Source of the DNA: a virus
Length of the DNA: 64,000 bases
IMG/VR virus record: IMGVR_UViG_3300043015_000560
Location: 16,086 to 80,085 of that record
Reading direction: 5' to 3' (one strand)
The translations under genes and the position numbers were made by a program. Of this stretch, positions 7,926-40,538 are shown piece after piece (position 1 is the first letter of the stretch; each line of letters starts with the position of its first letter). Below the pieces are notes generated by a model. The model ran no database searches, had not been told where the DNA came from, and worked only from the letters and a program-made list of their open reading frames with translations.

Positions 7926-7930
7926 CGCTT

Positions 7931-8113
7931 TTAACCTTGTTGTTTAGACCTCTCAGCCTTTTTCTTTAAATGTGTTATTAACATAGCAACGTAAACTTCT
8001 CTTTCCCATGGCATCATATTTTCTAGTTCCGTCAAACTGTAATGATGTTCTTGCATTAACAAAAAATTAGTCTTGTAATAATTCTCAAGACTATCCTGAG
8101 AAAGAGTTAGGCG
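7931..8113 (-). CDS. gp51: gp51-like baseplate hub assembly segment, probably reached by -1 frameshift from gp26 (internal ATG at 8056)
   Basis: Missed by ORF track; reads RLTLSQDSLENYYKTNFLLMQEHHYSLTELENMMPWEREVYVAMLITHLKKKAERSKQQG*. Confidence 0.8.
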   Translation of the reverse strand, partial: RLTLSQDSLENYYKTNFLLMQEHHYSLTELENMMPWEREVYVAMLITHLKKKAERSKQQG

Positions 8114-8799
8114 AAAAAATGTTCGTATCCATTGATATTAACACTGTTCTGCCCTTCACATTTAGGACACTTGAAATCAATCGTGTGCCCGAGTAAAGGA
8201 ACATTCTCAAAAAATTCTTTAACTTTTGAAAGTGTATTTACTGGCATATTGTCTATATATTCAATTAACTCTTTATAATCTATATCCTTTGCTTCCCAAA
8301 CTTCATCTTCACTATAGATGCATTCAACGCATTCTAAGATGAGTTCGTCGTCTTGTAGATTTTCCGCTTTGCCCATTGTTTTGGCGGACGGGTATTTTAA
8401 AACAATACCGTTCTTATCGTCAATTTCAATCTTTCTATTAGCCTTTTCTTCTAGTCCAACAAGTTTGAAATCGTTCAAGTTTACCTGCCATGGCAAATTA
8501 GCAGAACAATGTCCACAAATAAGAGTGAACTCTTGTAACTCACTTACTGACTTAGATCTAAGTTGTAAGAAGATCCACTGTAAATCAAACATAGGAATCT
8601 CTTCCACATCCAATTCGCCAAAGGAACAGTTACTTACAACCTGTTGACAAGCTGCCACCATTTCAGAGGCATCTTCAGCCTCGCTAGCAAGTGTTAATAT
8701 TTTTTCTTCTTTTACAAGAAAAGGCCTAAATTTCATCTCTTTTTTAGATGAAGGTATTTCCAACTTAAATGTTGGCGTTTCAATTGTGGGTAATCCCAT
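8107..8799 (-). CDS. gp26: Baseplate hub assembly protein gp26-like
   Basis: MGLPTIETP...FRPFLVKEEKIL...FDLQWIFLQLRSKSV, two CxxC pairs, ends GYEHFFA. Confidence 0.9.
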   Translation of the reverse strand: MGLPTIETPTFKLEIPSSKKEMKFRPFLVKEEKILTLASEAEDASEMVAACQQVVSNCSFGELDVEEIPMFDLQWIFLQLRSKSVSELQEFTLICGHCSANLPWQVNLNDFKLVGLEEKANRKIEIDDKNGIVLKYPSAKTMGKAENLQDDELILECVECIYSEDEVWEAKDIDYKELIEYIDNMPVNTLSKVKEFFENVPLLGHTIDFKCPKCEGQNSVNINGYEHFFA

Positions 8800-8821
8800 T
8801 ATATTCTCCTAATAAATAAAA

Positions 8822-9352
8822 TCAAATTCGCTCCCAATACGTGGAAGCCATTGTTATTGAACACCTAATTGCTGATGTGTTTGCCGATGATACGGGAATC
8901 AAACTCAAAAGTTTAGGCATTGTTTCATAAAATTTCCATCCAGCTAATACTGAATCGTCCACAGCCAAAGAGTATATAGATATTGATCCGTATATATCTT
9001 CTGGATATGAAGTTTCTTTAGACACAGGATCAGAGCAAAGAAAAGCCCAGTTTTCAAACGCTGTTCTAATGCCCCAGTTTTGGTCTGCTAAGAAAGTGAA
9101 CACCGCTTCTGCACCTAAGAACTCTAAGTTTTGTGTTCTATACTCTGTCCAAGCACCAATTCTAAAAGGCAGGTTTGTTGCAACCAATCCAGGTATTTGT
9201 GCTTCTTCACATAATATTGAAGTTGTTCTAGCGACGTCAGGTGGTAAGGCAAGACTGCCAGGAAAGTTGACAACCACCTCAAACCTATCGGAACGAGGAG
9301 TATGTGAACTTCTAACTGTAGCTAGAAAATTACCAAAATTATTTTGTGCCAT
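8822..9352 (-). CDS. gp54: Baseplate tail-tube initiator, gp54-like (gp19 fold)
   Basis: RSDRFEV..., CEEAQIPG, RTAFENW tube-fold motifs; synteny. Confidence 0.65.
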   Translation of the reverse strand: MAQNNFGNFLATVRSSHTPRSDRFEVVVNFPGSLALPPDVARTTSILCEEAQIPGLVATNLPFRIGAWTEYRTQNLEFLGAEAVFTFLADQNWGIRTAFENWAFLCSDPVSKETSYPEDIYGSISIYSLAVDDSVLAGWKFYETMPKLLSLIPVSSANTSAIRCSITMASTYWERI

Positions 9353-9903
9353 TATAGTAGCTCCCTACTGTCTCTCCAAACCTCGGCATTGTCTGCACCT
9401 TGGAAGTCTGCCAGCGGAAGGAAGATTGCCGGTTTCCAATGATCTGGATTGATTTTTAAAAATTGTGACTTGACCCCATCTATACGATATCGCTTAATAC
9501 ACGCTTTAATTCCTGGAAATTTTTGTATTATGCCCCAACTAGTTGATGTGAACTTTCCGTCTTTAGAAATGTTTAATAGCTTTGCGAATAAATCGGCTCT
9601 AAGCATAGGGGGTAGGTAATGTAAGTTGATGCCGTAGAAACCACCTTTAGTATTTTCTACGGGTATACACAAAGGGAATCTATCCCAATACGGGAGTCGG
9701 TCTTTGTGTTTAGCATCATATAAGAACATATAGAGGCCACTATTAACTTCAAGAGAGTTTTTTAGTTCTCCCAAGTCAGAGCGTCTAGCATCTACAGGTG
9801 AATTAATGCCGCTAGCTAGCTTACGAACAGCTGTCATATACCATTGATATGATCTGTCTTTGTTTCCTGCTTGTCCAGATAACTGGTGAAATACGTCTTT
9901 CAT
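9352..9903 (-). CDS. gp2: DNA end protector gp2
   Basis: YMFLYDAKHKDRLPYWDRFPL...GINLHYLPP..R...CIKRY...W..AIFLP. Confidence 0.92.
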   Translation of the reverse strand: MKDVFHQLSGQAGNKDRSYQWYMTAVRKLASGINSPVDARRSDLGELKNSLEVNSGLYMFLYDAKHKDRLPYWDRFPLCIPVENTKGGFYGINLHYLPPMLRADLFAKLLNISKDGKFTSTSWGIIQKFPGIKACIKRYRIDGVKSQFLKINPDHWKPAIFLPLADFQGADNAEVWRDSRELL

Positions 9904-9908
9904 AAACG

Positions 9909-9916
9909 TATTTATA
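9909..9916 (-). promoter_or_regulatory. T4 late promoter for the gp2-gp54-gp26-tape measure operon
   Basis: TATAAATA on the minus strand, 5 nt before the gp2 ATG. Confidence 0.8.
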
Positions 9917-10349
9917 AGGGTAAGCCTAGTTCCTTTTCAGTTATTATCATAAATTCCCACCCTCTGTCTAAACAAAACTCTGTAGCAGTTTCCCATTTAG
10001 CTAGATTAACACCGTATGTCATAACCTCATTAATAAATCTTTTGGTTTTACGTTTAGGTATTACGGGTTCCTTTGTGAATCTATAAGGCTTAACTTCGAT
10101 TAAATATTTTTTAGATTCAGTCTTTACAAAGAAGTCTGGAAAATATCTGTGTATCTTTTTATCCAGAGGCGATCTATAAGGTATTACAATTTCTTCAGAT
10201 CCCCAAGCAAGCACATCTGTATTAGTATCACACCAATTCATAAACTTTAACTCATAACTAGATCTGTATATAATCTCCATAGAGTTGCCAACGTATTTCT
10301 CAGGATTGTTACAAACAAACCTGCCCTTATAAACATTCTTAGAATACAT
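9912..10349 (-). CDS. gp4: Head completion nuclease gp4
   Basis: NPEKYVG...YRSSYELKFMNWCD...WGSEE..IPY..P...HRYFPDF...IEVKP...NLAKW...IITE. Confidence 0.93.
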   Translation of the reverse strand: MYSKNVYKGRFVCNNPEKYVGNSMEIIYRSSYELKFMNWCDTNTDVLAWGSEEIVIPYRSPLDKKIHRYFPDFFVKTESKKYLIEVKPYRFTKEPVIPKRKTKRFINEVMTYGVNLAKWETATEFCLDRGWEFMIITEKELGLPL

Positions 10350-10612
10350 TACCATTCCTCTATCATAGGTTTTAGTTTTTTGGTGTGTAAATCTTCTAAC
10401 ATTTTAACAATGGGTTGCCCGTCGGTTAGTAGAAATAAATCCATATCTTCTTTTGTCTGTGTTACAAATGTCATTCTGATTCTCACAGGATCTGTTTGAT
10501 CCGGGAAAAATTCTATATCATCAGTAAACTGTGCCGTCTTTAAGACATCTTCTATGACATTAAAATCAAGAGCAAGGTTGTCTCTGATAAAGCTTAATCG
10601 CCAAGTGTACAC
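10349..10612 (-). CDS. Hypothetical protein
   Basis: 87-aa ORF translationally coupled to neighbours; GAGAGGA SD before GTG. Confidence 0.6.
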   Translation of the reverse strand: MYTWRLSFIRDNLALDFNVIEDVLKTAQFTDDIEFFPDQTDPVRIRMTFVTQTKEDMDLFLLTDGQPIVKMLEDLHTKKLKPMIEEW

Positions 10613-11907
10613 AAATATCCTCTCAATTGATCCATATTAACTTTGGTTTCTGTAGTAAAATCTTTCTTGTTTAATGTCGTAATAGTTTTAAATATATTTG
10701 TATTTATCCTATCTGTATTGTAGCTAACAGTAGGCTCCCATAGAACTAAGTGTAAGTCTTCTCCTACAATGTCAAACTCTCCAGCATAATGTTTACTTAC
10801 AAAATTATCTAAAACGTGTTTTTTATCTCTACCCATATGTATCCAGGTGTTTCCTTTTTTATTTAATTGATCGCCTAACAATCTTTTATTAGGCCATAGT
10901 TCGCAGTTAACAACTACTCTGTCATCTACAAGTTCCATGGTATAAAAGTCATCTGGTTGACAACCTAAACTGCTCTTTGTCCAATCACTATCTTTTGTAA
11001 CATGATTGACTAGAAGTGGAATACCGGTGTCGATAGAACCGAAGTGAGACATAAATTCAATATTATTTTCCTCACACAATCCTACAAAATAATCTGGCAC
11101 TGTAAATCCACTCATGTTAATTAATAAGGTTGTATCTAATTTGGGTATTGCTTTTAAGAATATATCCATACACCGCATATTGATCATCATCATTTTAGTT
11201 GGTTGCCATTTAACTATTTCATCTGCAAACCAACCTGAAATATGTTCAACTGTCATTGGATTCATTACAATGTTTCTGTGATTGTCAGATGCCATTAGGC
11301 TAGGAAACAAATGAGTTAATATGCTACTAGCGTGGTGCATATTTTTACTGTGAACAACTTTATCATCTTTTACAAACTTGAACACATCTATATTTCTTTT
11401 GGATATTGTATAAACCTCATTCTGCGTAAACAGCACTGGCTTAGAATCACTTGTTGTGCCTGAGGTCGAGCCTAATAGATAAGGAGTATGTAATTCGTTA
11501 AATTTATCTTCACATTCTTCATAATAATTTAAAATATCGTCTTCGTGTAAAACATTCTCACTATAACGCTCTACCATAATGTGGTGAATAGGATGAGATT
11601 TTAACCAATCACATTCTACTGTAAACTTAACGGGTCCAAACAAACCTAACTTTGTTTTGTGTATTGTTTGTGGGTTTACAGGGAAATCTAATATGAAAAG
11701 GATCAATCCTAATTCAGCGGCTGCAAAAGACAACGCAACTTGATTAACGTTAACTTCCATAATTGATATAGCAAGTTTATCGCCTTTCTCAGCGTTATAC
11801 TTATGTTTTAAGAGGTGTTTCCAGCGATTTGTTAGACTAATAATATCAGATTTAGTGTATCCATCATAATCAAGCGAATCATTAATAATATTTGTTGTGA
11901 GCATCAA
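10594..11907 (-). CDS. Adenylate-forming (ANL / AMP-binding) enzyme-like protein
   Basis: STSGTTSDSKPV P-loop, HFGSIDTG (YGxTE-like), LGD...MGR, and C-terminal TKVNMDQLR (A10 Lys-like). Confidence 0.7.
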   Translation of the reverse strand: MMLTTNIINDSLDYDGYTKSDIISLTNRWKHLLKHKYNAEKGDKLAISIMEVNVNQVALSFAAAELGLILFILDFPVNPQTIHKTKLGLFGPVKFTVECDWLKSHPIHHIMVERYSENVLHEDDILNYYEECEDKFNELHTPYLLGSTSGTTSDSKPVLFTQNEVYTISKRNIDVFKFVKDDKVVHSKNMHHASSILTHLFPSLMASDNHRNIVMNPMTVEHISGWFADEIVKWQPTKMMMINMRCMDIFLKAIPKLDTTLLINMSGFTVPDYFVGLCEENNIEFMSHFGSIDTGIPLLVNHVTKDSDWTKSSLGCQPDDFYTMELVDDRVVVNCELWPNKRLLGDQLNKKGNTWIHMGRDKKHVLDNFVSKHYAGEFDIVGEDLHLVLWEPTVSYNTDRINTNIFKTITTLNKKDFTTETKVNMDQLRGYLCTLGD

Positions 11908-11914
11908 TAGGCCT

Positions 11915-11922
11915 TATAAATA
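11915..11922 (+). promoter_or_regulatory. T4 late promoter (gp48 operon)
   Basis: TATAAATA. Confidence 0.85.
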
Positions 11923-11946
11923 AAGTAAAGTTTAACATACAAAGGA

Positions 11947-11954
11947 TATTTATA
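11947..11954 (-). promoter_or_regulatory. T4 late promoter (ANL enzyme-gp4 operon)
   Basis: TATAAATA on the minus strand, 40 nt upstream of ORF 11907. Confidence 0.65.
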
Positions 11955-13102
11955 TGAGTTTTTTCTCATTCTTTGAAAGCGACGACGATGGGGTCGTTAC
12001 CGAAGATAGCCGTCAGGATGCTAGGACCGCAGCTCGTAACGAACAAAGAGCTAGAACCTCTGCGGTTGTTAGCTCACCGACAACAGCGTCATATCCTTCT
12101 GATGCTAGTGCAGGTAGACAACCACATAGTGTTGTATTCCATATTAATGCCAGATCTAATTCAGCTGCAGGAGCAGCAGCCCAATCTGCTAATGCAGGCA
12201 CGGCGGCTTGGAATAATGCACAAGGGGCTTTACAAAGTCAACAGGCAAGTGAAAACAGAGCATCCGCAGATGCTAGCGATACAGTAATGGCAGGAGCCTC
12301 GGCTGTAGCGGCCGGCGCTTTAACGGCAGCCATAGGGCCAAAGATGACAGGGGACAACGCATCTAAACTAGCAGTGCCACTTCTTGCTACAGGAGCGGCA
12401 GTTGTTGCTGGAGCACTTGGTGGATCTTTAACAGGTTCGAATAATACAGTTAGACTATTAGGATCAATTCAACTACATATCTCACAAGCACCGGTTACAG
12501 CATATAGTGCTAACTGGGACGAAGAAACATTAGGCACAGCAGCAGGCTTGTTAGCAAGTGGTAGAGCTGGGTTGTCAGATATTCTTGGCGGGGCTGAGTA
12601 TCTTTCTCGTGGTGTTATTGGCGCGGCAGCTAATATTCCAAAAGAGCTAGGTATCGGCGATCAAAACATTGCAGGAGCAATTGAGGCAACATCTAAGAAA
12701 GTAGCAAACCCATACAAAGAACAATTGTTTAAATCAATGGGATTCAGAAAGTTCTCTTTTGAATATAAGTTTATGCCAAAGAATGCAAGCGAATACAATA
12801 CAGTTCAAGGCATACTTAAACAGTTTAGATTACATATGCACCCAGACAAAGGACAAGACGGCTTTTTCCTAATTTATCCTTCAGAGTTTAATATTGAATA
12901 TCGCTATAAGGGCGGAGTAAACGGACACATTGCTAAAATTGCATCCTGTGTTTTAACCGATATGAAAATTACATACGGTTCTTCTGATGGAACATTTAAT
13001 ACTATTAAAGGCACGGGTGGCGCGCCAAACGAAATTAATATGTTGTTGTCCTTCACAGAACTAGAAACATTAACAACAGATAGAATCGAGGACGGGCTAT
13101 AA
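11954..13102 (+). CDS. gp48: Baseplate tail tube cap gp48
   Basis: NPYKEQLFKSMGFRKFSFEYKFMPKN..E...YPSEFNIEY...CVLTDM...LSFTELE. Confidence 0.9.
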   Translation: MSFFSFFESDDDGVVTEDSRQDARTAARNEQRARTSAVVSSPTTASYPSDASAGRQPHSVVFHINARSNSAAGAAAQSANAGTAAWNNAQGALQSQQASENRASADASDTVMAGASAVAAGALTAAIGPKMTGDNASKLAVPLLATGAAVVAGALGGSLTGSNNTVRLLGSIQLHISQAPVTAYSANWDEETLGTAAGLLASGRAGLSDILGGAEYLSRGVIGAAANIPKELGIGDQNIAGAIEATSKKVANPYKEQLFKSMGFRKFSFEYKFMPKNASEYNTVQGILKQFRLHMHPDKGQDGFFLIYPSEFNIEYRYKGGVNGHIAKIASCVLTDMKITYGSSDGTFNTIKGTGGAPNEINMLLSFTELETLTTDRIEDGL

Positions 13103-24392: not shown

Positions 24393-30596
<6,204 letters not shown>

Positions 30597-30854: not shown

Positions 30855-31355
30855 ATGGCAACAATTACATTAAGATCAGTTAAGGGTAGTCCTTTAACTA
30901 ATAATGAAGTCGATACAAACTTTACCAACCTAAATACTGACAAATACCAATCCGGGGACTCAATCGTAGCCGCTGATTTAACAGCATCCGGAGATTTTTC
31001 AGTAACCGGTGAGACTAAGCTTGGTACTACTTCGGGTGTTACAGCAGCAGGAACAACACAAGGTGACGCAACAGCGTTAACAAAAACCTTCCACGTTGTA
31101 ACTAATGCGACGGCAGCACAAGGTGTCAAACTACCAGCAGCAGAAACCGGTAAGGTTGTTACAGTATTAAACGACACTTTGGTAAGTATTAAACTATGGC
31201 CTGAATCGGGCGATCAAATAGACGGTGGTAGCGTAGACGCAGCTAGAGATCTAGGTCCTGGCATGACTCTGAGGCTTGTAGCGATCTCAGGCGTTAAATG
31301 GAATTCGCTTTCAGATACACTAATTTTTAACAGCTCAGGCACGAGGATTAATTAA
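30855..31355 (+). CDS. Short fibre/adaptor protein
   Basis: N-terminal ITLRSVKGSPLTNNEVDTNFTNLN fibre-anchor motif; C-terminal IFNSSGTRIN. Confidence 0.7.
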   Translation: MATITLRSVKGSPLTNNEVDTNFTNLNTDKYQSGDSIVAADLTASGDFSVTGETKLGTTSGVTAAGTTQGDATALTKTFHVVTNATAAQGVKLPAAETGKVVTVLNDTLVSIKLWPESGDQIDGGSVDAARDLGPGMTLRLVAISGVKWNSLSDTLIFNSSGTRIN

Positions 31356-31357
31356 GA

Positions 31358-32749
31358 ATGAGACCTTTACGAATCAAAGCATCAGGCACTCCTATAACAG
31401 GTGCAAATTACCAGGGCTTACAAGAGATGAGCGATGGTGAAATTAATCAATATCTCTCAAATGTTATTACACAAAAGTTTGCCGATGACTCTGATGGTAC
31501 AGGCACAGCTGAGTTAAACATTAACGGATCGGGTACTGGCATTGGTACATTCGTTGATACACAAAGAAACGATGCAATTGGCGCTCACCCTTCAGGTGGA
31601 GCTACCACAACTACTAATTACGCATTTAACCAAGTAACAACAGCAGCAACCGAAAGTATTACTGATAGAGTAGTTGGTTGGGATAACGCAATCAAACAAA
31701 TGACTGACGGCGACTTAGATACTGACGTTTTAGATAAAGCGATTGATAGTATGGTTACCGAATCAGATTACACCGTTGGACAGTATTCACTTAGACCTAC
31801 TGCTCCTACAGGCGGCACGTGGACATCTAGATATACAATTACAGACACCGCACAAGGCGGCAACTCCACAACTTACTTGTGGCAAAAGACTGCACCTACA
31901 TCTAGCCCCAACTCAGATTTAGCAGCACTTAAAACTGACGGATCTTCTGTTAGAATGATGAGCGATGCAGAAATGGAACAGATGGTTCCTAGTTTTAGAA
32001 ATAGAATCATAGATACAAATATCGGAACATACAAGGTACAACAATCTGCTCCTTCATCTGGTGGTACTTGGGTACAGATGGGAGATTCCTTTAGTAACAC
32101 TCAACAGGAAATAGAATCTGAAAACTATGTAGGGAACTACACAGGATCTTACACCGGGGCTTATAACCAGGCGTTCTCAGGAACATATGCAGGTAACTAC
32201 ACGGGCGCCAAAACATACACCGGTAACTATTCTGGAACATATGCAGGTAACTACGTGGGTGGTTATGTGGGCGCCAAAACATACAGTGGAAGCTACTCAG
32301 GTAACTACGCAGGATCGTATCAAGGTAACTATGCAGGAACTTCAGCATATGCTGGAAACTATTCTGGATCGTATCAAGGTAACTATGTTCTATATTACGC
32401 AGGTTATGCACACGCTACATATACAGGATACTATTCTGGAACGTATACGGGTTACTACACAGGACCTAAGACATACACCGGGTACTACACTGGAACGTAT
32501 ACTGGTTACTACACAGGTAACTATGTAGGAACTTCAGCATATTCCGGAACCTATACAGGTTACTATGATGGAACCTATACAGGTAACTATGTAGGAACTT
32601 CAGCATATACAGGTTACTACACCGGCTCATATACTGGGTATTTCTCAGGATCGTATTCAGGCACATATGCCGGAACATACGCAGGCGACACTATTCAAGC
32701 GAGTAAAGAAACACTTTCAACCATTGCACTTTGGTTGAGAACTGCTTAA
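31358..32749 (+). CDS. Putative fibre-tip/receptor-binding protein with Tyr-x-Gly-x repeat insertion
   Basis: Three related modules (LQEMSD/IKQMTD/VRMMSD starts); 187-aa YxGx array inserted in the third. Confidence 0.75.
   Translation: MRPLRIKASGTPITGANYQGLQEMSDGEINQYLSNVITQKFADDSDGTGTAELNINGSGTGIGTFVDTQRNDAIGAHPSGGATTTTNYAFNQVTTAATESITDRVVGWDNAIKQMTDGDLDTDVLDKAIDSMVTESDYTVGQYSLRPTAPTGGTWTSRYTITDTAQGGNSTTYLWQKTAPTSSPNSDLAALKTDGSSVRMMSDAEMEQMVPSFRNRIIDTNIGTYKVQQSAPSSGGTWVQMGDSFSNTQQEIESENYVGNYTGSYTGAYNQAFSGTYAGNYTGAKTYTGNYSGTYAGNYVGGYVGAKTYSGSYSGNYAGSYQGNYAGTSAYAGNYSGSYQGNYVLYYAGYAHATYTGYYSGTYTGYYTGPKTYTGYYTGTYTGYYTGNYVGTSAYSGTYTGYYDGTYTGNYVGTSAYTGYYTGSYTGYFSGSYSGTYAGTYAGDTIQASKETLSTIALWLRTA
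32126..32686 (+). repeat. YxGx tetrapeptide repeat array with 22-residue super-period
   Basis: About 42 Y/F-x-G units broken by AKT, AKT, TSA, YAHAT, PKT, TSA, TSA. Confidence 0.95.
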
Positions 32750-32756
32750 ATAGGAC

Positions 32757-32788
32757 TTGACAAGGCATTATATATAAGTTATAATGCC
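32757..32788 (+). promoter_or_regulatory. Sigma70-type promoter overlapped by a 9-bp inverted repeat
   Basis: TTGACA-N17-TATAAT; GGCATTATA-N7-TATAATGCC. Confidence 0.8.
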
Positions 32789-32816
32789 GTTATACATTTT
32801 AATTATGGAGTAAATT

Positions 32817-33311
32817 ATGGCGAGAAGTAAAAAGAAGTTTGATGTCAAAGATGTCAAAGTTGAACTAATCGATCCTAAAAAAGCAAAAAAAGAACCTACC
32901 AAATTTGAATTTCCGTATTGGTCCAATAAGGAAGCAAAGCATCTTATTGCTACTATTGTTATGCCAGATGGCAGACGTAGCCTCGCTTCTATTATGGATA
33001 AGGATGGAACGAATCCCGACTATCTAGCAATACTAGAACAATTCACCGAAGAACAAATTGACGAAAATACCGCAGAGGGTCTAAAGCGCAGAAACGAAAA
33101 TGTGCGTAGACAAATGGAAAGGCGAGAAGCCGAAGCAGCAAGAGCACAACAAGAATCACTGTTTGCATCAAAGTTGGAAGCATTTGAAATACCTCTTATT
33201 AAAAACTCTACCAACGTCGAGTTTAAAAAACTAATTCGAAAGTCCAAATCTCCTATGGAGGTAGCAGCATACGCTACGATATTGTTACAAAAAGAATTAG
33301 AATCCGAATAG
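32817..33311 (+). CDS. Hypothetical protein (charged, coiled-coil)
   Basis: 164-aa ORF with GGAG SD; first gene of the modification island. Confidence 0.75.
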   Translation: MARSKKKFDVKDVKVELIDPKKAKKEPTKFEFPYWSNKEAKHLIATIVMPDGRRSLASIMDKDGTNPDYLAILEQFTEEQIDENTAEGLKRRNENVRRQMERREAEAARAQQESLFASKLEAFEIPLIKNSTNVEFKKLIRKSKSPMEVAAYATILLQKELESE

Positions 33312-33320
33312 GAATATATT

Positions 33321-34049
33321 ATGTCTAAGCGAGAAGGCGACGGTTTTGTAATTGTCGCAACTAAAATGCCAGGCTACTTTAGAGCCGCAATCAAACTAGC
33401 AGAGTCTATTATAGACTTTTGGCCCGAAGCTAAAATTACTTTCTACACAGAAGAAAAATGGGTAGACACCGCACACCCAGAGTGCGAACTAAAACCTGGA
33501 CAATATCAATTATTTGATAATGTAATTACATGGGAAGTCCCTAGTCATATTAGAGCTAAACTCTGGGCACTAGAACATACTCCATACGAAAGAACTTGTT
33601 ATTTAGATTGTGATATGGAATGTTGGCATGAAGATATCCAAGATGTTTTTGATCTACTCGGCGATAAAGATTTAGTCTTTACAAAGATAAGACCTTACAA
33701 TGCCAAACTAACAAAACTTTCAAACACAGAAGAAATGACTATGCACTGTGGTTGGTTTGTTTACAACGACAAACCTGATACACTGGCTCTAATGAGTGCG
33801 TGGTATGGTGAATACTTACACCAACAAACAAAAGAATATGATATCGCACATTATCCTATAGACGCAATTAAATGGGATACTTTTACAATGTGGCGACTAT
33901 TAACTTACAGCGATCATAAAGTAAATTGGGGATTTATTAATGAGCCTGACGCAAGGTGGAACTTTGTAAACGGATACAAGGATGAAGAACTTCAAGGGAC
34001 TGACATCGTTTTATACCACTACACAATTCCTAATTGGCAGCTTAAGTAA
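33321..34049 (+). CDS. Glycosyltransferase, GT-A fold (GT8-like)
   Basis: RAKLWAL..TPYERTCYLDCD (DxD), WDTFTMWRLL, ARWNF, VLYHYT. Confidence 0.8.
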   Translation: MSKREGDGFVIVATKMPGYFRAAIKLAESIIDFWPEAKITFYTEEKWVDTAHPECELKPGQYQLFDNVITWEVPSHIRAKLWALEHTPYERTCYLDCDMECWHEDIQDVFDLLGDKDLVFTKIRPYNAKLTKLSNTEEMTMHCGWFVYNDKPDTLALMSAWYGEYLHQQTKEYDIAHYPIDAIKWDTFTMWRLLTYSDHKVNWGFINEPDARWNFVNGYKDEELQGTDIVLYHYTIPNWQLK

Positions 34050-34672
34050 TGAGTGAAGTCGAGCAGTGGAAACTTTACAATGAGTGGACATACGACAACT
34101 TCTTTTCAGAAATTAAAGAGACAGATTCAGTTTTAGAATTGGGACCTTTAATCGGATTCCACACAGAACTTATCCAAAGAAGAAAACCAAAAATTCTTAA
34201 GGTTGTAGAACCTAACACAGGTGACGCACTAGAGGCTTTAAAGGTTAAGACATCATTAAGTGATAATCAAATATACAATGGCACTGCAAATGATTATTAC
34301 AAAGAACATAATGAGACATTTGATACGGTAGTTTGTTGCGGACTACTTTATCACTTGCTAGCACCAGAACACTTGTTAGAGCAGATAGTAAACCGATCTA
34401 AACCTAAAAGAATTATTATATCTAATTTAGAAGCAAAAGATTCTATTGTCAAGTATAATACTAGGGAAGATGGTAGAGAGGCGTTTGCTAGATCTGATGA
34501 TAAAGGAATAACTAAACCTATTAGATATGGAGTTTCTTTATCTGCAGATACAACACGAGGTATGTTAGAAAGTGTTGGTTATAAATGTTTGAGAAACTTA
34601 AATACAGTAGGTATCTGGGATAAGTATATATATTATTGGCAACTATATGAGGTAGACAATGAAATGGGTTAA
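34049..34672 (+). CDS. Class I SAM-dependent methyltransferase
   Basis: SVLELGPLIGFHT motif I; FDTVVCCGLLYHLLAP motif. Confidence 0.85.
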   Translation: MSEVEQWKLYNEWTYDNFFSEIKETDSVLELGPLIGFHTELIQRRKPKILKVVEPNTGDALEALKVKTSLSDNQIYNGTANDYYKEHNETFDTVVCCGLLYHLLAPEHLLEQIVNRSKPKRIIISNLEAKDSIVKYNTREDGREAFARSDDKGITKPIRYGVSLSADTTRGMLESVGYKCLRNLNTVGIWDKYIYYWQLYEVDNEMG

Positions 34673-35309
34673 CATAAGCGACGAGCTATTAGATATTCTT
34701 CAACCGTACACCGACTGGTTTTTTAGTCAAGACTTAACTGAACTTGAAAAACATATTGACGGGAAAAGAGCAGGCGACGAAACTATAGATACTGCCTGTG
34801 AAAAAGAATACTTAGATATGATTGTTGCAAAGGATGGCGCCCATGTTGGATACCCAGAACATACAAAATCTATAGATATATTAATGGACGAAAGAACTCC
34901 TCGTGAACACAGAGAAAAGTGTCAAGAGTTAAATAGAGAATTGTGTGCTTACTTAGGTGCTAGAAATCAAGCAGTTCAAGTTTACTATCCTAAAGACGGA
35001 TTTATGGCCTGGCACAATAACTGGAATGCATCTGGCTATAATATTCTTTTATCTTATAGTCCAACGGGTAATGGATTCTTTAAGTATTTAGATCCTAAAA
35101 CTAAAGAACTTGTTACAATGAAAGATAAAGCAGGTTGGGCTTGTAAAGTAGGATACTACGGAAGGGGTAGAGAACCTGACAAAGTTTATTACCATTGTGC
35201 AGGTTCATATGAAGATCGCCTTACTTTAGGGTTTGTTATTCCACATTTAGAATTGTGGCGTAACATGATTGAAGATATCTCAGGAGAAGATGCTACTTCT
35301 TACCAATAG
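34659..35309 (+). CDS. 2OG-Fe(II) oxygenase-like / cupin protein
   Basis: YYPKDGFMAWHNN...YYHCA...RLTLGF: Hx(D/N)...H...R double-stranded beta-helix pattern. Confidence 0.65.
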   Translation: MKWVNISDELLDILQPYTDWFFSQDLTELEKHIDGKRAGDETIDTACEKEYLDMIVAKDGAHVGYPEHTKSIDILMDERTPREHREKCQELNRELCAYLGARNQAVQVYYPKDGFMAWHNNWNASGYNILLSYSPTGNGFFKYLDPKTKELVTMKDKAGWACKVGYYGRGREPDKVYYHCAGSYEDRLTLGFVIPHLELWRNMIEDISGEDATSYQ

Positions 35310-35970
35310 CCATAAATCTATCGTAAAACTTTTTACCGTCCCACGAATAATAATATTGAATTGTCTTGCCACTATAATAAGTGTCCTTTAATCCTATATT
35401 TTCTATTAGCGCAAGTTCGCTATCAACACAATTAATGCCGTACATTTCTTCCATTACGTTAGAAGACTGACAAGCAAATATTGCATGCTTGTTAGCAGTA
35501 TAAAGATCTTGTAACGGATACATCTGTTCGCACCCTAAAGATATAACAACATCTACATTCATCTGATTAAGTTCGTCAAACGCAAAAGGAACATCTAAGT
35601 TCCAGTGATTAATCTTAATGAACTCTTCTTTAATATAATGCCCATTAAAAACTTTAGATAACTCTAAAGCCTCAGGATCAATATCGACCAAGTGTAGTTG
35701 CCCTACAGATAAGTTTTCACAAAGCAGAGGCACTAAAGGAATACCTAACCAAGAATTTAGAACAAGAATATTCAATCCTTCTTCTTTCATATAGTGTTCT
35801 TCTAGAACTTTCTTTAGTTCTTCCACCATCCAAATACCTGCTTCCATAGTATTCGGATTGAGAGCCTGTCTAAAGTCCTCATGTTTATGCTTCATTTCAT
35901 GTTCGACTTTAGCTAGTCCATCGCCCCAGTGTTGGAGACTGTTTAAAAAATTATAGTTCAAATTTGACAT
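35293..35970 (-). CDS. Methyltransferase-like protein (divergent motif I)
   Basis: ILVLNSWLG...VDID...VISLGCEQM...CQSSN...INCV...RFMAIG; start refined to ATG 35970. Confidence 0.6.
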   Translation of the reverse strand: MSNLNYNFLNSLQHWGDGLAKVEHEMKHKHEDFRQALNPNTMEAGIWMVEELKKVLEEHYMKEEGLNILVLNSWLGIPLVPLLCENLSVGQLHLVDIDPEALELSKVFNGHYIKEEFIKINHWNLDVPFAFDELNQMNVDVVISLGCEQMYPLQDLYTANKHAIFACQSSNVMEEMYGINCVDSELALIENIGLKDTYYSGKTIQYYYSWDGKKFYDRFMAIGKK

Positions 35971-36640
35971 CTTCTTTCCTTCCCATTGAATCAAATAAAC
36001 AAACGTAAGGCATTTGTCTATAGACTTGTTTTTCTGTATCATGGGGCCAAATATAACCTTGGTTATAACTGTACGCCCACCCAATTGGAAAATATTTAAT
36101 CCTAGCAACACCGCGGTGTCCGAAGAAATTATCTATTCCCCTGTAATACCAAAGTATCTGTTTTAGATGCTTGTTAAGATATAAAGTAATATCTTCGGTA
36201 TTTAAATTATCATTCCATCTTAAAACTGACGAGTTCAAGTCAGTATACTTATGTGGAATGTGTCTTGTATCTTTATATTGAGTTTCCATATCATGCCAGT
36301 GTGTCTTAATGAAACACAAACAATCCTCAGGATCAAACTCAACCCATTCGTCTAAGTTTCTTTGAATGATAACATCTAAGTCGAAAAACATTTTCTCGCC
36401 CTTTTGACGAACTACATTATCATCAAACAAGTACATTTTATTCCACCACTTTTCTAAGTTATTATTTTTAGGTAGTGGAATAACATTTATATCTTCAGAC
36501 AATCCTCTAGGGTCTTCTGTTAAACAAAAGAACTTAAACTCTGAGCTAATGTTCTTAACACAGGATTCGTAAATTGCTTGAACGTGCTTGTGGGAATACT
36601 TGTTTCCCCACTTCACGGTATAAATGTTTATCATTGCCAA
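35951..36640 (-). CDS. Glycosyltransferase (KWGxKY / DLD family)
   Basis: VKWGNKYS..HV...FFCLTED...WWNKMYLF...FFDLDVII...NSSVLRW. Confidence 0.8.
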   Translation of the reverse strand: MAMINIYTVKWGNKYSHKHVQAIYESCVKNISSEFKFFCLTEDPRGLSEDINVIPLPKNNNLEKWWNKMYLFDDNVVRQKGEKMFFDLDVIIQRNLDEWVEFDPEDCLCFIKTHWHDMETQYKDTRHIPHKYTDLNSSVLRWNDNLNTEDITLYLNKHLKQILWYYRGIDNFFGHRGVARIKYFPIGWAYSYNQGYIWPHDTEKQVYRQMPYVCLFDSMGRKEDVKFEL

Positions 36641-37443
36641 TGCTTTAATAGTTTAGGATCTACCAACTCATCTTGTTTGGTGTGTCCTCTACTCTTATCC
36701 TCAAATGGTAGTAAGTCTACATTAAACACGCAAACAATACAACCTTCTCTATAAACTCCGACATCCATATCACCACTGTCCCAATCTCTACCTCTGTTAT
36801 ACGAATAGGCGTATTCAGATGGGAAGTAGTCCCACAGGTTTTCACCATAGATGCCCCATTTCCAACTGTGATAGTTATCTGTTCCGTCGGTATAAGTGAA
36901 CCATATCTTTTCTTGATTCTCTAATACATCGTTCCAAATAATCTCACATTGATCATCGCTCCAAACTTGACAGGACCCGTTTGTGTATGCGCCGTGTGAA
37001 AGTTTGAATCTTCGTGTTTTCATTGGGCGGGGATCTTGCCACCATGAACGCATCTTTGTAGGACGCTCCATGTTGTAAGTAATGATAGGTTCTAAATCAC
37101 GTTGAATGATGACATCCAAGTCAAAGAAAATAAAGCGGCCAGTAGGTTTATCGTCTGCAAAATTATGAGTATTGAATACAAACGTCTTGGGTCTATCCCA
37201 ACATCTTGCCATGCCGTACTTGAAGTTGTCGCCACCAAACCAATACTTAGGATGGATATTGGGAATATCAGGAAAATCAATAACTTTAATATCATCTAAA
37301 AGTCCTTCTGCATCGTCGGTATAACAATAAAAATGAAAGTCGTGTTTTTTGTCGACATGCCGTTTCGTCATGTTATACAAACGATTAACAAAATGAGGCC
37401 CATACTTTGAGCCCCATTTAGAGCAGACTATATTTACCCTCAT
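36631..37443 (-). CDS. Glycosyltransferase (KWGxKY / DLD family)
   Basis: CSKWGSKYGPHFVNRL...YCYTDD...HPKYWFG...CWDR...FFDLDVII...YSYNRG. Confidence 0.8.
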   Translation of the reverse strand: MRVNIVCSKWGSKYGPHFVNRLYNMTKRHVDKKHDFHFYCYTDDAEGLLDDIKVIDFPDIPNIHPKYWFGGDNFKYGMARCWDRPKTFVFNTHNFADDKPTGRFIFFDLDVIIQRDLEPIITYNMERPTKMRSWWQDPRPMKTRRFKLSHGAYTNGSCQVWSDDQCEIIWNDVLENQEKIWFTYTDGTDNYHSWKWGIYGENLWDYFPSEYAYSYNRGRDWDSGDMDVGVYREGCIVCVFNVDLLPFEDKSRGHTKQDELVDPKLLKHWQ

Positions 37444-37691
37444 AGTTCTTCCACGACGTGTTGAATGACAAAATCTCTACCATACATCAAGCTATAGTTA
37501 ACTAGCTCAGAAACAATATCCTTTGTCTTTTCCTCAAATTGATTTTTATTACAATGAACGACAATAGAAACAAACTTGCCGTTTCTAACAGAGTCGATTA
37601 CATCGTCCGTATCTTTTTTATCCCAAGTATCAAAGGATCCAAAATACGCATCCGCTTTCCTTGTTGATTTATACATTTTTGCACGCTCCAC
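37440..37691 (-). CDS. Hypothetical protein
   Basis: Coupled ORF within the minus-strand operon (likely start MYKS at 37676). Confidence 0.55.
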   Translation of the reverse strand: MERAKMYKSTRKADAYFGSFDTWDKKDTDDVIDSVRNGKFVSIVVHCNKNQFEEKTKDIVSELVNYSLMYGRDFVIQHVVEEL

Positions 37692-39174
37692 ATTTTAGTT
37701 TACAAATGTTGCTAGGGTCTAGTTTTAATTTATTATTGAAGTATGCTGTGTAAAAAGCATTCGTCAAAATAGACTCTAGCGGTTCTAACTTACAATTGTT
37801 GGCCTTCCAATTATATATGATGTCTGTATCTTCATAAGGATTAATGTCTGCTTCTAGTATTTCTCTAGCAGTGTAAACACACGGGAAAACATTTCCTCGC
37901 TTGTCTATGTAACATTTATTCTCAATTTTAGATTTACATCTAACCTTCTTCTCAAATTTAACTTTTACATCTACATAGTCTGCCTCTTTAGGTTTTGTTT
38001 GTAGAGTATCAAGTTCTATTAACTTATAGTCTGGAAGTTCTTTAACAATTATTCTTTCTTCTTTAACTGGTAGTTCAGGTGGCTTGTTTTCAATAAAAGT
38101 AAAGCCACTGAATTTATGTTTTTTGGATAACGCTCTTGCCTCTTCAATGTCATTATCAGATTGTGTGGTTCTAGTGTATTGCCAAAAAACACGAGCTCCA
38201 CTCTTTAACAAGGCCTTTGCATTTGTAATTTGTTTATCAAAGTCTTTGTTATTAATGTCATCAATTGTAGCAGTGATGTTACCCATTTTTCTATATAGTA
38301 TCCCGGTGCTACCCCACCAAAATTCATCATGTGATGTTAAGTCTGTTAATACATCTACACTCACACCTTCAAACTCTAGAAAGTATTCAGAGATGTCGTA
38401 AAAGTCCTCACATAAACTTGGCTCTTCTACGTCATTGGATAAAATTAACTTGGTCATTCTAGACTTTCCTAGAAAGTCCTTATTAAAGATCCTAACAACC
38501 TCATCATAGCTAAATCCATTTACTTCCATTTCTATTTCAGAAGGCAAGTAAGGATACAAATCTATAGACCTATTATAACAGTTTTCTACGTAGCTGTCAA
38601 GAGTATGAGTGTACCAATAAGGAAAGGTAACGATATCATCTGTAAGACTAATTGGATAGTCTTTGTTTTGTGTATTTAAAAACGGAAGTGATGGTAGTTC
38701 GTTAACTTGAAACTCTTGTTTGAATTCGTAGTTATAAAATGTTATGTCTTGTTCGTCTCTATCCCATTTTTGTATCAGATTCTGTACATATTTGTTCTTA
38801 TGTATATAATATGTAACATTTTCGTCTTGCATTAAAACTTTATCAATACCACTGCCTTTGTACGATAAAAGGGCCATAGGATCATTTAATAAGACGTTTG
38901 GAGTAGTAAAAAGACTAACTCCATTATCCTTGGTATGTTGTATTAAGTCTATTTCTAACCACTGCTTTCCATACTTTGGAACATGGAATTGAATGCCGTC
39001 TACAAAGCCGTCTCGCTTTTTAGTGCTATTGATATTGTCGAGTTCTTCCTGTGTAGTGAAAACAAAGAAGTCAAAAGGCTGCTCAATCAGGTTCTTTGCC
39101 TGAGTATAGAAATTGTTTATATGGATTTGACTGTACTTACTATCCAGTAAGTTTGCTATTAAAGTTAGCTCCAT
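37669..39174 (-). CDS. Degenerate GT + degenerate radical SAM + SPASM/twitch fusion (pseudo-enzyme)
   Basis: N-terminus echoes the GT paralogues; centre echoes a radical SAM barrel without CxxxCxxC; C-terminal C...YIDKRGNVFPC...C..KC. Confidence 0.6.
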   Translation of the reverse strand: MELTLIANLLDSKYSQIHINNFYTQAKNLIEQPFDFFVFTTQEELDNINSTKKRDGFVDGIQFHVPKYGKQWLEIDLIQHTKDNGVSLFTTPNVLLNDPMALLSYKGSGIDKVLMQDENVTYYIHKNKYVQNLIQKWDRDEQDITFYNYEFKQEFQVNELPSLPFLNTQNKDYPISLTDDIVTFPYWYTHTLDSYVENCYNRSIDLYPYLPSEIEMEVNGFSYDEVVRIFNKDFLGKSRMTKLILSNDVEEPSLCEDFYDISEYFLEFEGVSVDVLTDLTSHDEFWWGSTGILYRKMGNITATIDDINNKDFDKQITNAKALLKSGARVFWQYTRTTQSDNDIEEARALSKKHKFSGFTFIENKPPELPVKEERIIVKELPDYKLIELDTLQTKPKEADYVDVKVKFEKKVRCKSKIENKCYIDKRGNVFPCVYTAREILEADINPYEDTDIIYNWKANNCKLEPLESILTNAFYTAYFNNKLKLDPSNICKLKCGACKNV

Positions 39175-39922
39175 GCCAATGCCTCAAAAGTTTCTCATCT
39201 TGTAATTCACTCATTTTAATCTGCGCCTTAGCTGCAGGGTCTGGAGTTAAGTCTGTATTAAACAAACAAACTTTATACTCCTCTCTATATTTATACTTCT
39301 CTTTATCCTCTTTATGATGAGCTCCTCTATTATAAGAGTAAACCCAATCCCAAGGAATGTTGCCCCAGAACTTTTTTTGTCTCCAGTAATGGTAGTTATC
39401 TGATCCTTTAAAGAATGTTTTAAATACTACATCTTGGTGTTCTAGAACATCGTAGTAAATTTTCTCACATTGACTCCCATTCCAACACATCATACTAGAA
39501 TTAAAATAAGTTCCTCTAATATCAATAAAGAATCTCTCATGTTGTTGTCCGGGTGGTTGCCATTTAGATTCGATTATTCTAGGTTTGTTTGCTAGATTGT
39601 ATAGATCGTTTATATTGTTTTGAACAATAACATCTAAATCAAAGTAACACCATTTACCCTCATAGCCTAGCCACTTATGAGAGTTGAATACAAGGAACTT
39701 AGCACGATCCCAACAAAAGTTTTCCTTTCCAAACCAATAGTCTGGATGCAGTGGCTCAATATTGGGGATAGGCGCGGTGGCGCAATCGAGTCCTTCTGCG
39801 TCATCTGTAAAACAGGTAAAGGTGCAGGGTCGAGTATAGTGTCTCTCAACCATTGCCTTTAAATTGTTTACATATTCAGGAGAATATTTACTTCCCCATT
39901 TGATACATACGAAGTTCATCAT
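39140..39922 (-). CDS. Glycosyltransferase (KWGxKY / DLD family)
   Basis: CIKWGSKYSPEYVNNL..MVERH...CFTDD...HPDYWFG...CWDR...YFDLDVIV...NSSMMCW. Confidence 0.82.
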   Translation of the reverse strand: MMNFVCIKWGSKYSPEYVNNLKAMVERHYTRPCTFTCFTDDAEGLDCATAPIPNIEPLHPDYWFGKENFCWDRAKFLVFNSHKWLGYEGKWCYFDLDVIVQNNINDLYNLANKPRIIESKWQPPGQQHERFFIDIRGTYFNSSMMCWNGSQCEKIYYDVLEHQDVVFKTFFKGSDNYHYWRQKKFWGNIPWDWVYSYNRGAHHKEDKEKYKYREEYKVCLFNTDLTPDPAAKAQIKMSELQDEKLLRHWHGANFNSKLTG

Positions 39923-40538
39923 ATCTTTTTGCTATGTCCTCTTGAACTGATTCTTGTCCATTCAATAATGCTATTGTTGCGTCTTTTATTTTACCACCAT
40001 CAAACCAAAATGAATAAACCTCATTTTCGGGAAAGTGTTCAAATGTAAAACTCTCATGGTATAAAAACCTATCATCACCTGCATACTTTACCATATAGTA
40101 ATCTTTATTCTTTTCCCAGTAATCATATATATGTCTGTTATCTTCCCACATCATCACACTAGAATTAAAATTGCTTAAATAATTATATGACCACCTACTG
40201 TCTTTGTGATAAGGGAATTCTTGAGGTTTCCAGTAAGTGTAACATATGATGGGGTTCTTGTCAAGCATTTTCCACAAATGTTCTATACCTTTTTGTATTC
40301 TAATATCTAAGTCTAAATAAAGAACTTTGCCTAAGTTTTCAAGTTTGAACAGTTTAACCTTTTCCCAATGCCCTTCAATTTCATGATCTATAGGTATTGT
40401 TGTTATATTTTTATTGAGTCCAATAGGATTATCAGTTACACAGACGCGGTTGTAGTCACCTGGAATAGAATTATAAATACGATTAACGTCCTCAGACGTA
40501 TATTTGTCCCCGTATTTTAATGTCAAAATTGTTTTCAT
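39888..40538 (-). CDS. Glycosyltransferase (KxGxKY / DLD family)
   Basis: LKYGDKYT..DVNRI...CVTD...WEKVKLF...YLDLDI...FNSSVMMW...GDDRFL. Confidence 0.8.
   Translation of the reverse strand: MKTILTLKYGDKYTSEDVNRIYNSIPGDYNRVCVTDNPIGLNKNITTIPIDHEIEGHWEKVKLFKLENLGKVLYLDLDIRIQKGIEHLWKMLDKNPIICYTYWKPQEFPYHKDSRWSYNYLSNFNSSVMMWEDNRHIYDYWEKNKDYYMVKYAGDDRFLYHESFTFEHFPENEVYSFWFDGGKIKDATIALLNGQESVQEDIAKRYDELRMYQMGK

Follow-up and report, generated by a model that had tools for sequence, protein, structure and literature searches.

Closest Described Systems

The phage structure closest to the protein considered here is the needle (D10-D11) of gp37, the protein at the tip of the long tail fibre of phage T4. 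This slender beta structure points towards the host, and its crystal structure reportedly goes back to Bartual et al. in 2010. In D10 the chain runs out and back (residues 811-881 plus 1010-1026, flanking D11) and strand glycines pack on aromatics of another subunit, as G921 does on F970; the protein is an obligate trimer, contains seven His-coordinated iron ions and needs the chaperones gp38 and gp57A (PMC6957217). Here we describe P0001, a protein of 463 amino acids (aa) encoded in a 64,000-nucleotide stretch of viral DNA (IMG/VR record IMGVR_UViG_3300043015_000560), hereafter the window, in which a long array of Tyr-x-Gly-x (YxGx) units would fold into a single antiparallel beta-hairpin. 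The out-and-back path and the Gly-on-aromatic packing would be common to both proteins, and the topology of gp37 is suggested for P0001 by matched arms, mirrored breaks and mirrored Phe pairs; unlike gp37, P0001 has a strict tetrapeptide repeat and a two-strand pairing code, and would grow from a single-chain beta-prism. No homology to the gp37, gp12 or gp10 collar or needle was found (phmmer against PDB at E<=10; Pfam, PHROG, NCBIfam), and residues 257-444 hold no His-x-His metal site, their single His being H352.

Two other kinds of system are relevant. The MABP domain of MPEG1 carries an inserted, hyper-extended hairpin whose hydrophobic tip binds membrane, acidic lipids and lipopolysaccharide (LPS) (PMC7593815). 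MABP prisms and P0001 would be alike in a three-fold pseudo-symmetric prism, one elongated hairpin and a hydrophobic tip, and they differ in that there is no sequence-level relation and that every module of P0001 has a helix. Moreover, the MPEG1 hairpin is neither repetitive nor length-variable, unlike the stalk proposed here, and is tens of residues long as compared with ~200 in P0001. As for stalks whose reach is adjustable, monomeric SasG (SasG/Aap E-G5 repeats) stays extended without covalent cross-links (PMC4458895), and in Periscope proteins variation in repeat number sets the projection of the distal part (PMC8201768). The length series of P0001 would follow the same functional logic, with no homology; those stalks are strings of folded domains built from single tandem repeats, whereas a hairpin must change in both arms.

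On the reading that we favour, and to which we give overall a probability of roughly 0.7, P0001 would be a tail-associated structural protein of an uncultured estuarine/marine T4-like myovirus related to pelagimyophages. Its first ~250 and last ~19 residues would form one compact domain of three tandem modules, and the hairpin of module 3 would be drawn out into a two-stranded antiparallel ribbon of ~98 residue pairs, ~30 nm if extended. The chain would go out through 20 YxGx units, turn at L-Y-Y-A-G-Y (centre Y350) and come back in the register i+j=700. On one face of the ribbon every Tyr would lie opposite a Gly of the other strand and touch one diagonal Tyr of that strand, a Phe at such a place being partnered by Phe, while Lys would stand opposite Ser or Ala at every 22-residue break. 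Because both strands would carry this code, the stalk could change in length only when both arms change.

A Mirror-Symmetric Array

The gene and its parts are as follows; the limits of the modules come from AlphaFold2, with its predicted local distance difference test (pLDDT) as confidence, from hhalign and from a display of the pairing.

31358..32749 (stop codon included), + strand: P0001, 463 aa, proposed beta-prism and hairpin-stalk protein (open reading frame list, translation)
31358..31642, + strand: module 1 of the N-terminal domain, aa 1-95, with strands, helix 26-43 and hairpin 60-70/83-92 (AlphaFold2, pLDDT ~90)
31643..31903, + strand: module 2, aa 96-182, with helix 117-134 and short hairpin 154-163/170-179 (W155...W175) (AlphaFold2, hhalign)
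31904..32125, + strand: N-terminal part of module 3, aa 183-256, with helix 203-220, GGTW anchor (W238) and the non-repeat base strand of the hairpin (AlphaFold2, hhalign, pairing display)
32126..32383, + strand: outgoing arm of the YxGx array, aa 257-342 (parse, register i+j=700)
32174..32176, + strand: F273, one of only two Phe of the array, with F429 as diagonal partner (S-i+2, S being the sum i+j)
32207..32215, + strand: break AKT 284-286 (K285), opposite TSA 414-416
32273..32281, + strand: break AKT 306-308 (K307), opposite TSA 392-394
32339..32347, + strand: break TSA 328-330 (S329), opposite PKT 370-372
32384..32419, + strand: tip YVLYYAGYAHAT, aa 343-354, turn centre Y350 (best fold-back register)
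32420..32689, + strand: return arm of the YxGx array, aa 355-444 (parse, register i+j=700)
32465..32473, + strand: break PKT 370-372 (K371)
32531..32539, + strand: break TSA 392-394 (S393)
32597..32605, + strand: break TSA 414-416 (S415)
32642..32644, + strand: F429, partner of F273
32690..32746, + strand: closing strand at the C-terminus, aa 445-463 (...LWLRTA; W459), running back into module 3 (AlphaFold2, pLDDT 83-89)

The 195 residues from the start of the array comprise 50 Tyr, 42 Gly, 32 Thr, 2 Phe and 1 His. A mechanical [YF]xGx parse gives 3-ynqa-3-KT-5-KT-5-SA-3-yvly-YAGY-ahat-4-KT-5-SA-5-SA-7. The initial annotation, made from the letters of the window, had divided the array into 7/5/5/tip/5/5/7 units, a segmentation that the parse reproduces once YNQA is taken as a degenerate unit; it had also counted about four units before the tip, where the parse finds three regular ones plus YVLY. 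No other open reading frame of the window has a comparable array. The array lacks the G-X-Y pattern of collagen, Gly recurring every fourth residue in phase with Tyr. Its DNA repeats are degenerate, Tandem Repeats Finder seeing only short 12-/24-nucleotide arrays with 60-89% matches, so that the periodicity is kept at the protein level.

All possible fold-back centres of P0001 were scanned. The best register, i+j=700 (centre Y350, in Y-A-G-Y-A-H-A), brings together 40 Tyr/Phe:Gly pairs with zero Tyr:Tyr or Gly:Gly clash over 98 pairs, and registers shifted by two residues give only clashes. When the array was shuffled as 50 tokens (n=2000), the best score averaged 26.2 +/- 4.5, and one shuffle in 2000 reached 40. 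At i+j=700 the pairing runs uninterrupted across all six breaks, whose centres pair as K285:S415, K307:S393 and S329:K371; the facing of xKT and TSA breaks that had been pointed out earlier becomes, for AKT over TSA, A:A, K:S and T:T. On the other face of the ribbon the second position of the unit (x2) would pair with x2, mostly Ser/Thr/Ala with Thr, and the fourth (x4) with x4, with Asn:Tyr six times. This pairing explains the preference, also noted at the outset, of the outgoing arm for YxGN/S and of the return arm for YxGY/T (x4 being N8 S4 A3 T3 in the former and T8 Y7 in the latter). Furthermore, F273 and F429, the sole Phe residues of the array, fall at S-i+2 as diagonal neighbours.

Other features of the same region are side observations. 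Two open reading frames in other frames lie inside the repeat (32091-32411, - strand, 106 aa; 32187-32528, + strand, 113 aa) and are taken to be by-products of it, not genes. Four N-Y-S/T sequons are found within P0001, on the outgoing arm only, and such sequons arise wherever an Asn at x4 precedes Y-T or Y-S:

32135-32143, + strand: sequon at residue 260
32195-32203, + strand: sequon at residue 280
32225-32233, + strand: sequon at residue 290
32357-32365, + strand: sequon at residue 334

Arms That Change Together

P0001 has >1000 homologues among 5.8 billion proteins, 120 of them listed in the protein search, and 575 matches among 1.84 billion representatives at 50% identity, with lengths from ~290 to 2503 aa; in the ESM Atlas the family is placed in virus-only clusters. 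At the short end, the homologue P0209 (287 aa) has nearly no array and keeps the same base and the same F-F-A-G-F turn, which supports the initial proposal that the array is placed at, and grew from, the short hairpin of the third module. Locus searches for array-less forms found none with P0222 and, with P0209, one locus, which carries a short array. Above these come architectures of 2/3, 4/5, 5/6 and 8/7 units, a common form of 415-418 aa (6-KT-5-SA-2-tip-4-KT-5-SA-6), a 462-aa form with one additional segment per arm and a 506-aa form with two. Some relatives are perfectly mirrored, such as P0019 (4-KT-5-KT-5-SA-5-SA-4-tip-5-KT-5-KT-5-SA-5-SA-4), P0018 (9...9) and P0076 (13...13). Divergent relatives have Arg-type breaks, or tip inserts of up to >100 residues. 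The last 19 residues are kept throughout the superfamily.

The lengths of the arms were compared by means of landmarks independent of the repeat, namely the Trp of GTW in module 3 (w1), the Trp of the C-terminal LW (w2) and the tip motif. Of 144 unique relatives, 107 have an offset 2*centre-(w1+w2) of 3; in a further 24 it is 4-5, and in another three 1-2. Length does co-vary between the arms, which match in all but a few of the relatives. This holds in ~33 length classes, the shortest arms having 26/23 residues and the longest 200/197 (r=0.97 across distinct classes), and since each class needs at least one length-changing event, it would have been preserved through some thirty such events. 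In P0043 the offset is off by 8; the remaining outliers, with implausible offsets, are taken to be false calls of the tip motif. The initial annotation had the length changing only by paired 22-aa duplications, and in this it was too narrow: the 448-, 455- and 463-aa forms have 5/5, 6/6 and 7/7 terminal units, with arms of 94/84, 98/88 and 102/92 residues, i.e., paired four-residue steps at the base; there are also small paired changes at the tip, and many matched-arm relatives have no 22-residue period (e.g., 8/7, 13/13, or 27 uninterrupted units). The short hairpin of module 2, for which AlphaFold2 confidently gives strands 154-163/170-179, has an offset of 333-155-175=3, equal to that of the long hairpin, which suggests that the latter continues an ancestral register without slip.

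The breaks follow the same mirror. In the anchor-defined register, and across 31 distinct break patterns, 60 of the 81 breaks of the outgoing arm are exactly mirrored, against 0-5 in registers displaced by 2, 4 or 8 residues. The types are complementary (KT:SA 21, SA:KT 12, KT:ST 5, and the like), and K:K or SA:SA never occurs.

A third, finer relation concerns the aromatic residues. A Phe at position i of the outgoing arm is accompanied by a Phe at S-i+2 of the return arm (weighted counts: FF 96.6, FY 29, YF 10, YY 432), with an odds ratio of 134 at this mirror offset of +2 and of 0.35-3.75 at nine other mirror offsets. In a count by distinct pattern (43 of them), FF pairs number 106 and mixed pairs 73 at +2; at -2 the figures are 32 and 256. 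Divergent members obey the rule at positions of their own (P0071, 6 FF and 1 mixed; P0037, 4 FF and 0 mixed). Diagonal side-chain pairs in beta-hairpins, and aromatics packing over cross-strand Gly, are established features, and the right-handed twist of a two-stranded sheet predicts coupling on one diagonal only, which is what is found for Phe. Offsets in the parallel sense, from 2 to 98 residues, yield Phe:Phe odds ratios no higher than 14. Tandem duplication of DNA copies in one direction, and the mirror relation therefore argues for physical contact.

The sequence code, the mirror register and their conservation are observed directly in these proteins. Matched arm lengths, complementary mirrored breaks and one-diagonal Phe pairs, three independent signals from the comparison of relatives, bear out the earlier proposal of one long antiparallel hairpin with Tyr over Gly, and we regard its topology and register, as read from sequences, as well supported and very probably correct. 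The same evidence bears on a parallel beta-solenoid in which each 22-residue segment would be one coil and the central motif no more than an irregular one. The period of P0001 and its close relatives (5 units + 2) does resemble a coil length, and AlphaFold2 gives no confident model to the contrary. However, a solenoid would not have its arms change in pairs across ~33 length classes with only 2-3 exceptions, nor Lys breaks opposite Ser breaks in mirror order, nor so many matched-arm relatives without the period, and the Phe:Phe matching is mirror-related, not translational (odds ratio 2.7 at 22 residues); this makes it the least probable of the explanations that we considered, with hardly any weight left to it.

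The Putative Prism Anchor and the State of the Proposed Ribbon

From a 26-sequence alignment, AlphaFold2 models residues 1-250 and 451-463 of P0001 with pLDDT ~80-92 (85-95 in the N-domain), each of the three modules having strands, one helix (26-43, 117-134, 203-220) and a hairpin. In the short-array homologue P0139 the domain exceeds 90, and in both proteins the strands at the base of the hairpin are paired (237-253/313-337 in P0139). The three modules had been described as paralogous: modules 2 and 3 are indeed homologous (hhalign 95.7%, E 9e-9), whereas for module 1 the likeness is limited to a short motif and a common secondary-structure pattern.

When the N-domain was compared with known structures by VIA-align, the same four leaders came from both models: the C-domains of Mp2Ba1 (8b6v, Z 7.4) and Plu-MACPF (2qp2, Z 7.2), the MABP domain of MVB12B (3tow, Z 6.0) and the P2 domain of perforin-2/MPEG1 (6sb1, Z 5.5), with 113-118 aligned residues and rmsd (root-mean-square deviation) 3.7-5.3, the next match being at Z 3.2. 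These are all beta-prisms of the MABP type. A Foldseek search of PDB and BFVD gave no match at E<=0.001, and sequence profiles do not place P0001 in Pfam MABP, no Pfam family matching at E<=1. By a structural match of moderate strength, the modelled N-domain is most like an MABP-type beta-prism and may embody the same design principle.

That the architecture belongs to no described family holds in our searches: P0001 has no match in Pfam (E<=1), PHROGs or NCBIfam, and phmmer with the array against all PDB chains gives none at E<=10. Two automatic labels on relatives, PF13441 on P0019 and 'YcfJ' on P0115, were read as low-complexity artefacts.

Several observations weigh against the reading that we favour. 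AlphaFold2 gives the array a pLDDT of 21-40, with no usable model, and stays below 50 for that of P0139; the match to beta-prisms is itself moderate, with Z <8. Two relatives, P0006 (484 aa) and P0024 (441 aa), have one 22-residue segment too many in the outgoing arm, with none to match it in the return arm. This makes them exactly intermediate in length between the 462/506 and the 419/462 forms, respectively; each comes from a single short contig, and they may be true evolutionary intermediates or assembly errors. Among the breaks, 21 of 81 are unmatched, mostly, we take it, in divergent architectures. Two clades confound the covariation of Y and F inside a single length class, and with it the Y/F phi coefficients, and for this reason the Phe rule was counted as positional matching within proteins against offset controls and not as independent substitutions. 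Column-wise mutual information with average product correction, in the two largest equal-length classes, is underpowered (Neff 10.9 and 6.1): near-antidiagonal pairs make up 20% and 13% of the top 30, as compared with a background of 6%, and pooled x2/x4 cross-strand mutual information did not discriminate the register from shifted ones. As for function, it is read from context only. Finally, no solved structure known to us contains a free two-stranded ribbon of 30 nm, and such a ribbon may therefore need partners or oligomerisation.

This last point opens the question of the state in which the stalk would exist. It could be a free-standing single-chain ribbon, the protein equivalent of an RNA stem, whose folding would obey a simple pairing code, with Tyr:Gly opposite one another, Lys:Ser at the breaks and Tyr-Tyr or Phe-Phe on one diagonal, the length evolving by compensatory insertions and deletions in both strands; we hold this tentatively, at somewhat worse than even odds. 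Slightly behind it, and unlikely in our estimate while still to be reckoned with, two, three or six chains would bundle their ribbons or swap arms, burying the Tyr/Gly faces in a multi-stranded needle. The entire Tyr/Gly face, plus the return-arm Tyr on the other face, would be sticky if exposed, and the covariation is blind to whether antiparallel pairing is within or between chains; gp37 is an out-and-back trimer with strand Gly on Phe of another subunit (PMC6957217), and phage fibres are typically trimers (bioRxiv 10.1101/2024.10.28.620165). Against such a bundle stand the anchor, modelled as a single-chain pseudo-threefold prism with one of its three hairpins extended and no need of a trimer, and the array itself, with one His and no HxH metal sites. 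In view of the strict coupling of Tyr-Tyr to Phe-Phe and of the always-linked enzyme genes (see below), the ribbon might also undergo post-translational stapling or decoration, for instance by Tyr-Tyr cross-links, by hydroxylated or glycosylated Lys, Thr or Ser, or at the four N-Y-S/T sequons.

The low AlphaFold2 confidence could also be taken at face value, the array being a disordered or reversibly self-associating low-complexity tract of Tyr/Gly/Ser/Thr, adhesive or gel-forming and with no fixed hairpin. Its composition is indeed like that of aromatic-rich low-complexity segments, but such a tract gives no reason to expect arms that match exactly, breaks that mirror and complement each other, or Phe:Phe pairs at specific positions, and a close strain (contigs of salt-marsh RNA libraries) differs by ~40 substitutions and no indel over 2.46 kb. 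We consider it very improbable, although a little less so than the solenoid.

A Conserved Tip and the Polarity of the Proposed Stalk

The initial annotation proposed a small receptor-binding tip, to be checked for hypervariability. The opposite was found in close relatives, where no part of the array is better conserved than the core of the tip, [LI]-[YF]-Y-[SA]-G-[FY]-[AV]-G-G, with 0-1.3 bits of entropy in 107 relatives, including at positions that the selection motif leaves unconstrained; the flanks vary more, and large inserts are confined to distant relatives. Given this conservation, a strain-specific receptor-binding tip is not indicated. The Y-A-H-A variant of P0001 is a minority form.

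So conserved a core is usual for virion-attachment sites, and MABP-type prisms bind lipids (PMC7593815); both would agree with a reversed polarity, with the tip inserted in the virion and the beta-prism held out at the far end of the stalk as a head that binds the host. Nevertheless, the N-domain is itself strongly conserved, with dozens of invariant columns in 26 sequences, and the large variable tip inserts (>100 residues) of distant relatives fit a distal position. A further point comes from a tblastn search of 50,697 phage records, whose sole match is the N-terminus of a giant coding sequence (CDS) in Phage C48C1 (OQ984149.1, locus 6013-12972), so that the prism domain is N-terminal in a protein of 3348 aa. 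Fibre N-termini usually attach to the virion. We therefore judge the reversed arrangement improbable, though less so than a disordered tract. In Phage C48C1 the giant CDS is preceded by genes annotated as tail fibre protein and tail assembly chaperone and, as in the window, by a small virion structural protein gene. A blastn search of the locus against phage records found no match.

Genomic Context and Possible Function

P0001 lies within a structural and host-recognition module. By PHROG order, the genes upstream are a tail-tube cap (gp48-like), a gp5-like hub, gp6-/gp8-like wedge genes, a 2067-aa giant of phrog_358 and a virion protein of phrog_473; downstream of the P0001 region lie genes for sheath, portal and capsid. 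With the capsid proteins of Methylophilales phage Melnitz and Pelagibacter phage HTVC008M, that of the window shares ~70% identity. Downstream of their giant VrlC gene, pelagimyophages have a host recognition cluster, with fibres and many GT8 glycosyltransferases (PMC7029224). The neighbouring genes, with synteny counted in 80 related IMG/VR loci, are:

24393-30596: VrlC-like giant structural protein, 2067 aa, phrog_358 (E=0)
30855..31355, + strand: 166-aa gene directly upstream, P0001 starting 2 nucleotides past its stop; 69/80 loci
32817..33311, + strand: 164-aa Lys/Glu-rich gene; 80/80 loci and the distant locus L083
33321..34049, + strand: 242-aa gene, GT8-like according to the initial annotation, no Pfam match; 79/80 loci and L083
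34659..35309, + strand: 216-aa gene, oxygenase-like according to the initial annotation, no significant Pfam match; 78/80 loci and L083

The last three belong to an accessory cassette (32757-40538) in which the + strand genes are followed by four or five paralogous - strand genes, present in ~70/80 loci; one of these paralogues has a weak GT8 match (E 1e-4). The gene order is kept in L083, whose fibre is 37% identical and has 5/5 units. A methyltransferase gene (34049-34672; 1/80 loci) and a 500-aa gene with a weak SPASM match (37669-39174; 4/80) look like strain-specific insertions. The 166-aa protein has no Pfam, PHROG or NCBIfam match, and its N-terminus (..KGSPLTNNEVDTNF..) presumably resembles N-terminal motifs of phage fibre proteins. 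The 164-aa protein is possibly an assembly factor; in the Atlas, XkdW and tail-chaperone clusters come up for it with scores of only 0.76-0.80 and were kept only as leads. The VrlC-like giant has a long Pro/Val/Glu-rich linker and repeated GG-x-GYT-S/A-xPTV domains, which match baseplate-wedge and virion-protein PHROGs.

Many studies have data sets, from estuaries, seawater and salt marshes, in which DNA of the locus occurs. Salt-marsh and estuary metatranscriptome contigs cover the gene, a 905-nucleotide estuary contig matching 31849-32753 exactly; transcription was not concluded from such RNA-library contigs, since there are contigs of 6-14 kb among them. Another related contig has 425 nucleotides in place of 671 of the gene, which suggests a co-occurring relative with a shorter array.

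From sequence and genomic position we infer a physical hairpin of the length given above that would project from the baseplate region towards the host. With a functional logic like that of the stalks described at the beginning, P0001 may act as a length-tunable spacer or probe, favoured as anchored by the prism, a role that we put forward as possible, at a little under even odds. The conserved hydrophobic tip and/or the Tyr/Thr/Ser/Asn-rich faces would contact a conserved component of the host envelope, and the stalk may be decorated by the products of the linked glycosyltransferase- and oxygenase-like genes.

Significance

If the proposed structure is true, it would constitute a new way to build a thin, rigid fibre, out of one chain, two strands, a four-residue repeat and a readable code, with a length set by matched repeat numbers that would range from ~8 to ~65 nm across natural relatives. 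This design is seen in no characterised family, and its pairing code could be used as a designable nanoscale spacer. The family is common among aquatic T4-like phages (>1000 homologues; 575 clusters at 50% identity), and its gene opens the host-recognition cluster in phages akin to those of SAR11 and OM43, about whose adsorption apparatus next to nothing has been established. Its fixed link to the cassette of glycosyltransferase- and oxygenase-like genes prompts one to ask whether there is more to these enzymes than the modification of host LPS that has been published for them.

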